From contig CAXXHG010000006.1 in NCBI GenBank assembly GCA_963666315.2, forward strand, positions 1 through 28,734: 28,734 nucleotides of DNA. The letters are read 5' to 3'. Below the pieces are notes generated by a model, which saw only the letters and a program-made list of their open reading frames with translations, did no database searches and was not told the DNA's origin. Of this stretch, positions 11,759 to 21,900 are shown in pieces. Within the stretch, counting starts at the first letter, position 1. Each line of letters opens with the position of its first letter. The position numbers and the translations under genes are program-made. The stretch comes from Candidatus Binatia bacterium (lineage in GTDB: Bacteria; Desulfobacterota; Binatia; Bin18).

Positions 11759-13111
11759 ATGAGTCGCTACGATTATGATTTCTTTGTTTTAGGTGCGGGT
11801 TCCGGTGGGGTGCGGGCGAGTCGGATTGCGGCCTCGTATGGGGCCAAGACCGCGGTTGTTGAAGAACGCTATCTTGGTGGGACCTGCGTCAATGTCGGCT
11901 GTATTCCGAAGAAACTCCTGGTGTATGCTTCAGAGTTTCGTGATCATTTTGAGGATGCCGCCGGCTTTGGTTGGAGCGTTGGAGAGCGAACGGTTGATTG
12001 GAAAAGGCTGATTGAGAATAAAGACAAAGAAATCAACCGGCTGAACGGCATTTATCGTAATTTGCTTGAAGGTGCGGGTGCGGAAATAATTGAAGGGACA
12101 GCTCGTCTGGTTGATGCCCACACCATAGACGTGGGCGGCAAGCAGTACACCTCTGAGTATATTCTGGTTGCCACCGGAAGCTGGCCGGCATTTCCCCGGA
12201 TTCCGGGTATTGAGCACGCCATTACGTCAAATGAAGCCTTTTATCTGGATGCGCTGCCCAAGCGCGTGATTATTGTAGGTGGTGGCTATATCGCGGTTGA
12301 GTTTGCGACCATCTTTCATGGTCTTGGGTCAGAAGTGACCGAACTCTATCGGGGTGAGCTGTTTCTGCGCGGCTTTGATACCGATGTCAGACAAGTTCTG
12401 GCTGACGAAATGCGCAAACGTGGTGTAGATTTGCGCCTTCAGGCGGATGTGAGTGGTATTGAAAAGACTCCGCACGGAATCAAAGCCACGCTGAACGACA
12501 AGAGCGAGCTTGAGGCCGATATCATCATGTACGCCACCGGCCGGTTGCCAAACTCAAAAAACCTCGGTCTTGAAGCAGCCGGTATTGAGATAGACAAGAT
12601 TGGCGCGGTGTGTGTGGACGCCTACTCGCGGACGAACATTCCCCATATCTATGCGGTTGGAGATGTCACCAATAGACTCAATCTTACGCCCATGGCGATT
12701 GCTGAAGGTCATGCCGTGGCTGAAACATTGTTCAATAACAACCCGACTCGACCGGACCACATGAATGTGGCAACGGCAGTTTTCAGTCATCCGAACATCG
12801 GTACGGTTGGCCTGACGGAAGAGGAGGCGCGTCAAGAATACGGCGCTATAGATATCTACAAGTCCTCGTTCCGGGCGCTGAAACATACCTTGAGCGGGCG
12901 GGATGAGAAAACCTTCATGAAAATTATTGTTGATCCGAAATCAGACCGGGTGATTGGCTGCCATATGACCGGCCCGGAGGCGGGAGAGATTATTCAGGGT
13001 CTGGCCGTCGCCATCAAATGCGAGGCCACTAAAGCGCAGTTTGATGCCACCATCGGTATCCATCCGACCTCAGCCGAAGAATTTGTCACGATGCGACAAA
13101 AGGCGGCCTGA
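11759..13111 (+). CDS. gor: Glutathione-disulfide reductase
   Basis: GAGSGG FAD motif, GGTCVNVGCIPKK redox disulfide, GGGYIAVEFA NADPH motif with YRG...LRGFD, C-terminal GIHPTSAEE; 450 aa. Confidence 0.95.
   Translation: MSRYDYDFFVLGAGSGGVRASRIAASYGAKTAVVEERYLGGTCVNVGCIPKKLLVYASEFRDHFEDAAGFGWSVGERTVDWKRLIENKDKEINRLNGIYRNLLEGAGAEIIEGTARLVDAHTIDVGGKQYTSEYILVATGSWPAFPRIPGIEHAITSNEAFYLDALPKRVIIVGGGYIAVEFATIFHGLGSEVTELYRGELFLRGFDTDVRQVLADEMRKRGVDLRLQADVSGIEKTPHGIKATLNDKSELEADIIMYATGRLPNSKNLGLEAAGIEIDKIGAVCVDAYSRTNIPHIYAVGDVTNRLNLTPMAIAEGHAVAETLFNNNPTRPDHMNVATAVFSHPNIGTVGLTEEEARQEYGAIDIYKSSFRALKHTLSGRDEKTFMKIIVDPKSDRVIGCHMTGPEAGEIIQGLAVAIKCEATKAQFDATIGIHPTSAEEFVTMRQKAA
13093..13111 (+). repeat. 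Left direct repeat (gor 3' end; attL-like)
   Basis: GCGACAAAAGGCGGCCTGA is the last 19 nt of gor and is repeated at 21882-21900 with one mismatch. Confidence 0.8.
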
Positions 13112-13219
13112 ACTGAGAACCTTCCGCTCCGAGTCTCTCTCGCTGAGAGGGTAGGCTGCGGCTCTATCCCTCATCCAGAGGAAATATGAGCCAAATTTTC
13201 TTCTTGAAGTACGATTGGG

Positions 13220-13261
13220 TTGCATTTTTTGTCATATTTGCTATATTAGCAATATGACAAA
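13220..13261 (+). promoter_or_regulatory. Sigma70-type promoter overlapped by a palindromic operator; likely leaderless transcript
   Basis: TTGCAT (13220-25), 16-bp spacer, TG-c-TATATT (13242-47), with ATG 7 nt downstream (13254) and no SD. The inverted repeat TTTGTCATATT(T)GCTA-tat-TAGCAATATGACAAA spans 13228-13261. Confidence 0.7.
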
Positions 13262-15113
13262 TATGAGTTCGATAGCGTCCACACTGTACGCTATCCGCGC
13301 TAATCTTGATCTCACACAAGAGCAGCTTGCAGAACGGCTAGGTGTTTCCTTCGCCAGCATCAACCGCTGGGAGGGTGGTATCAATACGCCTCAGAAGGCG
13401 GCACGGACTGCCATTGAGGCGCTTGCAGTGGAGGCGGGAATCAACACCACGGACTCGGCTGCGGACGAAGCTGAGTCCGCGGCACGCGTGACTCGGCGCC
13501 GGTCCCGTCAGCGCCGGACGGCCGTTCCTTCCACCAAGCCCATGGAGCAAATGCTGTGGGATGCGGCCTGCTCCATCCGCGGAGAGAAAGACGCGGCAAA
13601 GTTCAAGGACTACCTGCTGCCGCTTCTCTTCCTGAAGCGCCTGTCGGACGTCTTTGACGATGAGATCGAGCGGCTGGCCGAGGAATACGGAGATCGGCAG
13701 ATTGCCAAAGAGATCGCCGAGAGCGACCACGAGTTGTTGCGCTTCTACTTATCCCCGGAAGCGCGCTGGGGCGTCATCAGCGGTCGCGAATCCCACGAAT
13801 GGCCGCTCGACGACCAGGGACGAAGCACGCAGCCTAAAGACATCGGGGAACATTTGACCAAGGCGGTGCGGGCGGTCGTCCGCTATAACCCGTCGCTCTC
13901 GGGCGTCATCGATCTCGTTGATTTTGCGGCCGAACGCAACGGCGAGCGCGATATCAACCCAGCGAAGCTCGCCGCCGTTGTCGAGACCTTTTCCGACTCG
14001 CGTTATCGGCTCGGTCTTGCCGACGTGCAGCCCGATTTCCTCGGGCGTGCTTACGAATACCTGCTGCGCAAGTTTGCGGAAGGTTCGGGCCAGAGCGCGG
14101 GGGAGTTCTTCACGCCGACTGAAGTCGGCTTCCTGATGGCCCACATCGTGCGCCCGAAGCCTGGTGAGGACTGTCACGACTACGCTTGTGGCTCAGCCGG
14201 GCTGCTCGTCAAGCTCCAACTCGTGGCCCGCGAACTCGACCCCACCAGCCGCGTGCCGCTCAAGCTCTGTGGGCAGGAGCTTCAACCCGAGAGCTACGCC
14301 GTCGCCCATATGAACGCGATCATCCACGACATGGAGGTTGAGATCGTCCGTGGCGATACGATAATCAACCCAAAGTTTAAGACCGCCTCCGGCCAGATCA
14401 GCACACACGACATCGTGGTCGCCAACCCGATGTGGAACCAGCCGTTCATTCCAGACGTTTTCGCCAACGACCCGTTTGACCGCTTCCGTCCCCGGGGCGG
14501 CGTGACCACCGGCAAGGGAGATTGGGCGTGGCTCCAGCACACTCTCGTCTGCCTGAACGAGCGCGGGCGGGCTGTGGTGGTGCTTGACACAGGCGCGGTA
14601 ACGCGCGGTTCGGGCAGCAAAAACGAGGACAAAGAGCGCAACATCCGCAAATGGTTTGTTGCCCATGATCTGATCGATGGCGTGATCCTGCTGCCGGACA
14701 ACCTTTTTTACAACACCAGCGCCGCGGGCGTGATCGTCGTCCTATCAAAGCGCAAGCCAGCGGCGCGGAAGGACAAGATGGTGCTACTGAACGCCAGCAA
14801 GCGTGTGCGCAAGGGACGGCCCAAGAATTTTATCCCAGAGGAGGACATTCGCCCGCTGGCCGCCGCCTACCTCAAGGGTGAGCCTGTGGCGGGAGAGATT
14901 GCCGTCATTACGAGGGAGCAGGCGGCAGAAGCTGATTACAATTTGAGTCCGAGCCGGTGGGTTTTAGGACAAGGGGCCAATGAAGTATCCTCCGTCGGTG
15001 ATCTAATTGCTCAACTGAGGGTGCTGTCAAAAGAGCAATTCGAGCATGACGAAAAACTACTCTCACTCTTGAAGCCGCTAACTGATGGAAAGCCCAATGT
15101 TGCCACCGATTGA
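13254..15113 (+). CDS. hsdM: Type I R-M methyltransferase subunit with N-terminal XRE/Cro HTH fusion
   Basis: [32 protein letters not shown]. Hsd[35 protein letters not shown]...[14 protein letters not shown] (motif I), VANPMW (motif IV), [18 protein letters not shown]. Confidence 0.93.
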
Positions 15114-21568: not shown

Positions 21569-21863
21569 CGAACGGCGTGAAGCCATCTGCGCCCGCGTTG
21601 AGTACTGGGCGCAGCGATTGAACGTCCGGCCGCGCCTGGTGCGGGTTCAGCGCATGACGCGGAAATGGGGGTCTTGCTCGACATCGGGAATCATTACCCT
21701 TGCCACTGATCTAGCCAACCAGGAAGCGGGATTCCAGGACTTCGTCATTGCGCACGAATTGCTGCATCTGCGCGTTCCCAACCATGGGAAGCTTTTCAAG
21801 ACAGTGCTGACGGCGCATGTTCCCGATTGGAAAAAGCACGACGTACGCAGGCGTCGTACTTGA
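21555..21863 (+). CDS. Short YgjP/DUF45 (M48-like) HExxH metal-dependent hydrolase
   Basis: [19 protein letters not shown] and NHGKLF motifs; this family is often found downstream of hsdR. Confidence 0.85.
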
Positions 21864-21881
21864 ATTGCAGACTCTCCGTGC

Positions 21882-21900
21882 GCGACAAAAGGCCGCCTGA
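21882..21900 (+). repeat. Right direct repeat (copy of gor 3' end; attR-like)
   Basis: GCGACAAAAGGCCGCCTGA is 18/19 identical to 13093-13111; the difference is a synonymous GCG/GCC. Confidence 0.8.

Follow-up and report, generated by a model that had tools for sequence, protein, structure and literature searches.

A repeat-flanked type I restriction-modification cassette with a PARIS-like gene and a putative toxin-antitoxin pair between hsdS and hsdR in a Candidatus Binatia genome

Do defence-type genes located between the specificity gene and the restriction gene of a type I restriction-modification (R-M) operon guard the restriction enzyme, do they act beside it, or are they passengers of a recombination hotspot? 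This question is raised by a 28,734-nt stretch of DNA from a Candidatus Binatia bacterium (GenBank assembly GCA_963666315.2, contig CAXXHG010000006.1, forward strand), hereafter referred to as the window, whose coordinates are counted from its first letter. The window contains a cassette of seven genes, in which a fused ABC ATPase-TOPRIM gene resembling that of the PARIS defence system and two small genes with the features of a toxin-antitoxin pair are situated between hsdS and hsdR. The reading favoured in the current study, to which a probability of about one half is assigned, is that the region represents an 8.8-kb horizontally acquired type I R-M island at the 3' end of an oxidoreductase gene, into which it was inserted, that it is composed of a backbone and an exchangeable middle (hsdS, the PARIS-like gene and the toxin-antitoxin pair), and that its defence layers operate side by side and not as one machine.

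Gene content and borders of the cassette

The seven genes of the cassette, as called from open reading frames (ORFs), Pfam and PADLOC, are all located on the + strand between positions 13254 and 21863 (Table 1). They either overlap (hsdM with hsdS; hsdS with the ATPase gene, by 4 nt; hsdR with ygjP) or lie at most 44 nt apart, with gaps of 44 nt between the ATPase and antitoxin-like genes, 2 nt between the antitoxin-like and toxin genes and 38 nt between the toxin gene and hsdR, and these overlaps and close spacings suggest co-expression of the cassette genes. The first gene, the ORF of which opens at 13215 and the start of which is placed at 13254, encodes a type I M subunit with the Pfam domains HTH_3 (helix-turn-helix, HTH; E 3e-08), HsdM_N (PF12161, 2.3e-23) and N6_Mtase (PF02384, 2.9e-70); its NCBIfam match to TIGR00497 (E 1.8e-49, 168.8 bits) remains under the curated cut-off of 242.75, and the equivalog level is thus not reached. 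The product of the second gene is a type I S subunit, with Methylase_S detected in two stretches and Specificity_I (1e-67) over residues 36-432, while all HsdR domains, i.e., HSDR_N, SWI2_SNF2, ResIII and T1R_D3, were detected by Pfam in the product of the sixth. An earlier, preliminary description of this DNA, made from the letters alone, had recognized seven co-oriented, closely spaced or overlapping genes bracketed by a direct repeat, extra defence-type genes between hsdS and hsdR of a type I operon, a methyltransferase bearing an HTH at its N-terminus and, last in the cassette, an HExxH protein, all of which were borne out by the domain matches, the gene order and strand, and the repeat.

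Table 1. Features of the cassette and its neighbours (window coordinates)
Feature	Position	Strand	Remarks
Left direct repeat copy	13093..13117	.	includes final codons and stop of upstream oxidoreductase gene
Candidate promoter/operator	13220..13266	+	-10-like TATATT 13242-13247; palindrome 13232-13266
hsdM with N-terminal XRE-type HTH and basic linker	13254..15113	+	HTH_3, HsdM_N, N6_Mtase; intact
hsdS, two target-recognition domains	15085..16416	+	Methylase_S x2; intact
PARIS-like (AriAB-like) fused ABC ATPase-TOPRIM gene	16413..18036	+	~540 residues when whole; one frame break
Antitoxin-like small gene, 74 residues	18081..18305	+	no named family matched
ParE-like toxin gene, 89 residues, GTG start	18308..18577	+	PF24732
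hsdR: HSDR_N nuclease, SWI2/SNF2-ResIII motor, T1R_D3	18616..21566	+	three frame segments as assembled
Short YgjP-like (M48/DUF45-type) HExxH metallopeptidase gene, 102 residues	21555..21863	+	PF01863
Right direct repeat copy	21882..21906	.	just short of 3' end of convergent EthD-domain gene
Pyridine-nucleotide disulfide oxidoreductase gene, upstream neighbour	11759-13111		Pfam
EthD-domain gene, downstream convergent neighbour	21930-22622	-	Pfam

The toxin was matched to the ParE_like family (PF24732; E 3.7e-10, 40.1 bits, cut-off 24.4), identifying it as a ParE/RelE-fold toxin whose family comprises 2155 representative clusters at E<=0.001; among solved structures only RelE3 was returned, with an E value of 0.15. 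The antitoxin-like protein has 532 relatives, nearly all of which are 74 residues in length, and the start of its gene is therefore placed at 18081 and not at 18033, where the ORF opens. A GGAGGT motif is located 7 nt ahead of this ATG. No match to the antitoxin-like protein was found in Pfam, NCBIfam or solved structures (PDB), yet the gene order of the pair, the 2-nt gap and the conserved 74-residue family fit a type II toxin-antitoxin pair of which this protein would be the putative antitoxin.

The final gene encodes a YgjP-like protein that is matched by the C-terminal half of the PF01863 model only (5.6e-26, from profile position 108 or 110 to 201 of 207). Since its homologue in the related locus L001, described below, has 103 residues, is 69% identical and covers the same profile span, the 102-residue form is natural and not a truncation. 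PADLOC returned a weak match to capP (7.3e-05), a search of solved structures returned no match for this protein, and NCBIfam gave no family above cut-off for the ATPase, toxin, antitoxin-like or YgjP-like proteins.

The two copies of the direct repeat that borders the cassette are identical at 22 of 25 bases, a value not reached in any of 300 shuffles of the two 300-bp flanks, the top shuffle scoring 19. The right copy is located 24 nt from the end of the convergent EthD gene. The repeat-flanked cassette thus looks like an insertion with site duplication in the short gap between two convergent genes. No integrase gene was found inside the cassette, Rfam and tRNA scans of the window gave no matches, megablast of the whole cassette against a plasmid collection returned no match, and a PHROGs search was uninformative.

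Backbone and cargo compared with a related locus

Genome contigs were scanned with an alignment of the ATPase family, by which at least 30 loci were retrieved; 18 of these carry full-length relatives, while twelve (L019-L030) are partial, with 44-283 residues that mostly belong to the P-loop end, and were left out of the counts. One of the full-length relatives, L001 (positions 6107-17578, on the chromosome of a Dehalococcoidia metagenome-assembled genome, MAG), is part of a cassette with the same backbone as that of the window. This locus possesses an HTH-hsdM gene (74% identical, the window gene being open in one frame against it), an hsdS gene (35%, as expected with variable target-recognition domains), the ATPase gene (64%), an intact hsdR gene of 1002 codons and the aforementioned ygjP gene, and a 4-nt overlap between the hsdS stop and the start of the ATPase gene is found here as well. 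In place of the toxin-antitoxin pair, L001 (11938-13931) encodes a TIR_2 protein (392 residues) and a SLOG-cluster-2 protein (279 residues) between the ATPase and HsdR; neither belongs to a PADLOC family at 1e-5, and the pair may represent an undescribed defence module. The genes flanking L001 differ from those flanking the window cassette, and the cassette therefore moves as a unit; the best flanking direct repeat in L001 (18/25) is at chance level.

Base composition divides the genes of both loci along the same line. In the window, the G+C content at third codon positions (GC3) is 0.66-0.78 for hsdM, hsdR and ygjP but 0.56 for hsdS and the ATPase gene; the corresponding values for L001 are 0.81-0.87 and 0.54-0.55. 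Part of the remaining cargo is likewise lower in GC3 than hsdM, hsdR and ygjP in both loci. These data fit a fixed backbone, with HTH-hsdM at the front and hsdR and short ygjP at the back, that encloses an exchangeable centre. In L001 the same backbone and ATPase gene are combined with TIR and SLOG genes, which take the place of the toxin-antitoxin pair; the centre of the operon is therefore a swappable cargo slot, of which the two loci together provide a clean example.

The HTH-bearing methyltransferase at the front of this backbone belongs to a large family. The combination of HTH_3, HsdM_N and N6_Mtase was found in all 120 of the best HsdM relatives, which are 80-98% identical and mostly ~610-620 residues long (a few up to 841), and seven of seven aligned members are identical in their recognition-helix region and in an arginine-rich linker. 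A blastn search of hsdM against E. coli genomes returned no match, and a tblastn search of HsdM against the plasmid collection returned only ordinary, HTH-less HsdM proteins, with matches that begin at residue 92 or later and are all below 36% identity. No HsdM was found on the contig of the partial locus L021. Neither a literature search nor passages of PMC12707154 yielded a publication on the fusion of an XRE-type HTH with a methyltransferase of a type I system. This fusion, a large database family for which no publication was found, is considered new, as is the occurrence of a PARIS-like gene within a type I operon. As a separate observation, HsdM residues 1-103 (13254-13562) also match the PADLOC models of RmrA (1.9e-06). 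RmrA is the HTH-peptidase antitoxin of RosmerTA, and the match probably reflects the shared XRE fold.

The layout of the cassette, by contrast, has a published counterpart in the RRDM island of enteropathogenic E. coli, where seven ORFs (RptR-HsdM-HsdS-DarT-DarG-HsdR-M48) are active against phages (Zhang et al. 2025, PMC12255303). As described in passages of that paper, the island resembles the window cassette in its seven co-directional ORFs, in a regulator function encoded first and a toxin-antitoxin module as cargo between hsdS and hsdR (both putative in the window), in an M48/YgjP-type peptidase gene downstream of hsdR, and in horizontal acquisition; the same passages report an AAA-like ATPase gene pair in the hsdS-hsdR gap of four genomes and call this gap a defence-system hotspot. 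The two differ in their regulator, which in the window is an XRE-type HTH fused to HsdM whereas RRDM encodes a separate 79-residue repressor, RptR. In the window, the upstream stop codon and the ATG of hsdM are 142 nt apart with no ORF between them, and none of the 6-bp RptR sites (TAGCTA, TAGATA, TATCTA, TATATA) occurs in 13112-13260. Furthermore, the window carries a PARIS-like single gene and a ParE-like pair as its cargo where RRDM carries DarTG2, and its peptidase is the short form of 102 residues. The term 'undescribed', applied to the system in the preliminary description, is consequently too strong, given that the same seven-ORF layout has been published as the RRDM island and its gap named a hotspot. 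Both this layout and guards of restriction such as PrrC and PARIS were already known; the cassette has its layout in common with RRDM and its logic in common with these guards, and it leaves the understanding of type I systems and their guards unchanged in principle.

The ATPase-TOPRIM gene and its relationship to the restriction genes

The ATPase-TOPRIM protein exhibits matches to AAA_21, SMC_N and AAA_15, i.e., it possesses an ABC ATPase of the AAA_15/AAA_21 type found in PARIS, while its C-terminal third is without a Pfam match above cut-off. The family is large and well conserved, with 3634 matches; the best 120 of these show 64% identity or more and have mostly 530-545 residues, with a few shorter or partial sequences, and the only name given to them is 'AAA family ATPase'. 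Across 18 sequences of 28-66% identity, the Walker A, ABC signature, Walker B and H-loop motifs are invariant, as are C346-E347-G348, D362, D413-R414-D415, E439 and K484 in the C-terminal part, which constitute a TOPRIM-type set of catalytic residues. The PADLOC model of fused PARIS, AriAB (PDLC02981), was the top match in 26 of 26 family members; for P0001, an intact 540-residue homologue that serves as a stand-in for the window copy, it scored 114 bits against 72 bits for the runner-up, PtuA, the best stretch aligning protein residues 171-452 to model positions 264-531 of 694. AriAB was also the top PADLOC match in five further relatives, namely four of the 18 locus relatives and a copy on a Zymomonas plasmid. 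The structural neighbours of an Atlas predicted model of another homologue, P0034, include 'ATP-dependent nuclease' clusters and an AAA_21+DUF4435 cluster (TM 0.50, to be read as a lead only), as well as a 199-residue stand-alone protein equal to the C-terminal domain.

The protein resembles PARIS in its fused AriAB form, as far as passages of Rousset et al. 2022 and Burman et al. 2024 describe it, in that an ABC ATPase and a TOPRIM nuclease with conserved acidic residues are combined in one polypeptide encoded by a portable single gene. It differs from it in genomic setting, the window gene being part of an hsd operon and PARIS being located in a satellite/prophage hotspot. According to the same sources, PARIS includes fused AriAB forms, is triggered by Ocr and by further acidic proteins, cuts tRNA-Lys, and senses its trigger directly and independently of a restriction enzyme (PMC9122126, PMC11464382). 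The earlier proposal that the ATPase-TOPRIM is a candidate effector has thus gained support, its top PADLOC model being that of a published sensor of Ocr, and on its sequence the protein is filed as PARIS-like, not as proven PARIS.

The genomic context of the family was surveyed by applying Pfam to 218 ORFs of at least 90 residues located within 7 kb of the ATPase gene of the 18 full-length relatives among the matches listed, to which all counts below refer. Type I genes were found near three of the 18 (L001, L004 and L008), and other restriction-type genes near four: an Eco57I-type methylase with a BsuBI/PstI enzyme (L003), Mrr_cat (L012), a giant Eco57I+ResIII protein (L017), and GmrSD_C with a PD-(D/E)XK nuclease (L002). 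The remaining eleven are without a restriction-type gene within 7 kb, several of them residing in integrase/recombinase islands (for example L010, L014 and L016) or on very short contigs. L002 (7697-11605, from a SAR202 MAG) carries the closest ATPase among the listed genome matches (65%), beside a PD-(D/E)XK/Cas4-like nuclease and a GmrSD_C+Excalibur protein, with no type I genes within 7 kb. Two of the full-length ATPase relatives, L011 (10001-11580) and L017 (9980-11610), are split into two ORFs as assembled. The ATPase had one full-length match in the plasmid collection, on a Zymomonas plasmid, where the gene stands alone among toxin-antitoxin pairs, and its only match in phages was a 23%-identical Oenococcus phage gene.

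In a maximum-likelihood tree of 18 sequences (P0001, the copy on the Zymomonas plasmid, and 16 locus relatives, the split L011 and L017 being left out of the 18), adjacency to type I genes required three changes and was not clustered, with 500 of 500 label shuffles giving values as low. Judging from its mostly stand-alone relatives and the scattered type I adjacency, the ATPase gene is a portable single-gene module, which has entered type I operons on more than one occasion. As a lead only, ATPase and TOPRIM-like genes of the rloA/rloB type are located between hsd genes in type I loci of Campylobacter jejuni.

These results bear on the coupling envisaged in the preliminary description, whereby the ATPase-TOPRIM, and perhaps the toxin, would be kept latent by physical association with the Hsd complex and would fire once the restriction enzyme is blocked by a phage protein. 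The model for such coupling is the anticodon nuclease PrrC, which is embedded in the type IC operon of EcoprrI (PMC3874165, PMC12707154, PMC3506569) and which, in the passages of these sources, resembles the window gene as an ABC-ATPase-headed latent nuclease encoded in a type I operon, providing a second line of defence when restriction is disarmed. The position of the window gene between hsdS and hsdR, as that of prrC within the EcoprrI genes, its 4-nt overlap with hsdS in both the window and L001, its PrrC-like ABC ATPase head, and the presence of two further relatives beside type I genes (L004 and L008) are all in line with this proposal. However, a conserved linkage to hsd genes was not observed: 15 of the 18 relatives are without a type I gene within 7 kb, the closest listed relative outside the window (L002) resides among other defence genes with no hsd, and the three type I-associated relatives are scattered on the tree. 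The toxin-antitoxin pair is likewise absent from all 18 loci, with TIR and SLOG genes instead in L001, and neither toxin nor antitoxin gave a tblastn match in any of the 30 listed loci. Furthermore, the effector domain differs from that of PrrC, as no PrrC-type family is among the Pfam or PADLOC matches and the C-terminal domain displays a TOPRIM-type E and DxD; there is no sign of Hsd masking here, and PARIS, the best-matching model, has been described to sense its trigger without need of the restriction enzyme. A guard of the PrrC kind is therefore considered improbable.

More weight is given to the opposite possibility, that the hsdS-hsdR gap is a mere recombination hotspot, the inserted genes being pure passengers, the trigger of the ATPase unrelated to restriction and the toxin-antitoxin pair only stabilizing, without any anti-anti-restriction logic. 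A precedent for a trigger unrelated to restriction is P2 Old, which senses inhibition of RecBCD. The differing cargo of two loci with the same backbone, the mosaic GC3, the mostly stand-alone or integrase/recombinase-island location of the ATPase gene among the listed loci, and the fact that PARIS membership is not established at the level of Pfam all favour such passengers, as does the varied cargo of the hotspot described in passages of PMC12255303. On the other hand, seven of the 18 relatives adjoin some restriction-type gene (a count without a baseline figure), AriAB exceeds the next model by ~40 bits, and both loci of this hsd family have kept the ATPase gene despite the change in the adjoining cargo. 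On balance this possibility is judged unlikely, though it is the most serious competitor to the side-by-side reading.

In the working of the cassette proposed under the side-by-side reading, in which triggers, targets, binding events and regulation are all inferred, the Hsd enzyme would methylate host DNA and cut unmodified incoming DNA. The ATPase-TOPRIM would represent a self-contained sensor and effector, triggered by a phage protein that, by analogy with PARIS, would most plausibly be an acidic DNA-mimic anti-restriction protein; once triggered it would cut RNA, which in PARIS is tRNA, and thereby halt the infected cell. As its gene would share a transcript with the restriction genes, it could cover phages that disarm restriction. 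A guarding of restriction by the inserted genes is plausible. The toxin-antitoxin pair would either stabilize the island or add an extra abortive layer.

Control region at the hsdM start and integrity of the reading frames

A -10-like hexamer (TATATT) ends 6 nt ahead of the hsdM ATG, where a Shine-Dalgarno sequence is absent, which together suggest a leaderless hsdM transcript; a -10-like hexamer is also present just upstream of the hsdM ATG in L001. The start codon is moreover spanned by a palindrome with 16-nt arms (88% complementary) and a 3-nt spacer, which as RNA has a folding z score of -4.5. Two palindromes of this quality are found in the window, compared to a shuffle mean of 0.45, and the one at the hsdM start is the best short-spacer palindrome. 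The only other strong one is a G+C-rich hairpin at 13447-13482 (+; 17-nt arms, -24.6 kcal/mol, z -3.9), located in the coding region of the HTH-HsdM_N linker and absent from the same place in L001. A 9-bp direct repeat in 2.4 copies (unit ATATTAGCA, 13234-13255, +) extends over the -10-like hexamer into the ATG of hsdM; in passages of the RRDM paper, repeats with a 9-bp spacing are likewise described over the -10 box of the promoter. A promoter and terminator scan of the window showed no excess over shuffles, and the candidate hsdM promoter was not among its predictions.

It is plausible that the HTH on HsdM represses its own, probably leaderless, promoter, in the manner of HTH-methyltransferase fusions of some type II systems. 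Methyltransferases of this kind that repress their own promoter are known from Ecl18kI, SsoII and EcoRII, as described in passages of PMC12707154, and share with the window protein an N-terminal HTH translationally fused to the modification enzyme and a palindrome at their own promoter. They differ in being C5 enzymes, the window protein being an M subunit of the N6-adenine kind from a type I system, and in that the window palindrome is not conserved in L001. Autoregulation through the methyltransferase, as claimed in the preliminary description, was thus overstated, given that it rests on one start-codon palindrome, yet it remains a reasonable inference. The HTH-HsdM family being very large and very conserved, the regulation of such operons is an easily testable question.

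A more elaborate scheme, modelled on the CapH/CapP and ImmR/ImmA repressor-protease pairs, would have the HTH on HsdM repress the leaderless promoter until the YgjP-like peptidase, upon a phage or DNA-damage signal, cuts the linker, thus derepressing the operon, freeing HsdM and switching on the PARIS-like gene and the cargo. Compatible with such a proteolytic switch are the invariant linker (seven of seven), the weak capP match of the peptidase, and the fact that HTH-hsdM and ygjP share the backbone composition in both loci and were both kept while the cargo changed. The RRDM authors, in passages of PMC12255303, leave the removal of their own regulator open and cite CapH/CapP. The scheme is nonetheless regarded as improbable.

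Four single-base frame breaks were found in the ATPase gene and hsdR, which makes the call for assembly polishing in the preliminary description an apt one. The break in the ATPase gene consists of one surplus base in a short C/A run near 16469-16476, such that residues 1-19, identical to those of intact P0001, follow the frame of 16413 and the remainder that of 16501. In hsdR, a single base is missing from a C/G run near 20283, and there is a surplus T near 21197 and a surplus A near 21533, with residues 1-556, 556-910 and 913-991 of the intact L001 HsdR aligning in window frames +1, +3 and +1 at 78, 60 and 67% identity, respectively. As the final residues and stop continue in another frame after the extra A near 21533, the end of hsdR is placed at 21566, overlapping ygjP as in L001.

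The same kind of break affects two genes outside the cassette. The N-terminal part of a DciA-like gene (PF05258, profile 35-88 of 89; ORF 884-1234, window 694-1234, +) is in another frame owing to a single-base break near 905-915; DciA is needed for replication. A CoxL-like gene (6085-8623, +) contains a surplus base near 6555-6565, which splits it.

In total, six frame breaks were seen in the window, each a single base in a short run, four inside and two outside the cassette, and the corrected hsdR frames contain no stop codons and retain 60-78% identity to L001. Given the nature of all six breaks, the absence of stops from hsdR once its frames are corrected, and the like damage to two housekeeping-type genes outside the cassette, assembly error is more likely than decay for the four breaks in the cassette, by about three to one. 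Alternatively, the breaks would be real and the island decaying, with hsdR and the ATPase gene as pseudogenes, while a solitary HsdM/HsdS methyltransferase and the toxin-antitoxin pair stay active. This alternative is consistent with the location of four of the six breaks inside the cassette, with the split homologues L011 and L017 elsewhere, and with frameshifted type I genes being reported as common in Streptococcus thermophilus (in passages of PMC11514479). It is opposed by the same type of break in the DciA-like and CoxL-like genes, by the lack of stops or deletions in the corrected frames, with high similarity to L001 over all hsdR segments, and by intact copies of the ATPase (P0001, 96% identical) and HsdM (P0122, 98% identical) in other assemblies; these closest relatives, at 96-98% identity, derive from metagenomes. 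Decay is accordingly held to be rather unlikely, slightly more so than the passenger explanation. If the genes are intact, the cassette would constitute a compact natural test of layered immunity, in which one promoter would serve both a restriction enzyme and a PARIS-like protein that senses anti-restriction proteins, and that shared promoter would be controlled by a DNA-binding domain on the methyltransferase itself.

Several findings weigh against the side-by-side reading. With regard to the PARIS-like protein, the Pfam family that defines AriB, DUF4435 (PF14491), scored 12.7 bits (E 0.1), well short of its cut-off of 27, and sequence and profile searches of solved structures returned generic Rad50, SMC and PtuA ATPase heads only, with no AriA, AriB, OLD or GajA. 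The protein is also shorter, at 540 residues, than the AriAB models (570 and 694), and a trigger-binding region of the PARIS type is therefore not to be assumed. With regard to the backbone, the comparison within the same hsd family is based on one locus, L001. As to regulation, 24 of 60 window shuffles hold at least one palindrome of the quality of that at the hsdM start, which was not found at the same place in L001. Finally, four of the six frame breaks fall within 31% of the window (binomial P ~0.08), the cassette having been inspected more closely than the rest.

Two further observations concern the region upstream of the cassette. Between the DciA-like gene and an fn3-domain gene, the segment 1264-2480 is of lower G+C content (0.48-0.50) and holds no ORF with a Pfam match other than a weak Ig-like one, and no Rfam or tRNA match. 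The broken CoxL-like gene (6085-8623) and a paralogue at 8700-11063 (+), both encoding large subunits of the CoxL/xanthine-dehydrogenase family, are arranged in tandem downstream of genes for FAD-binding and 2Fe-2S subunits.

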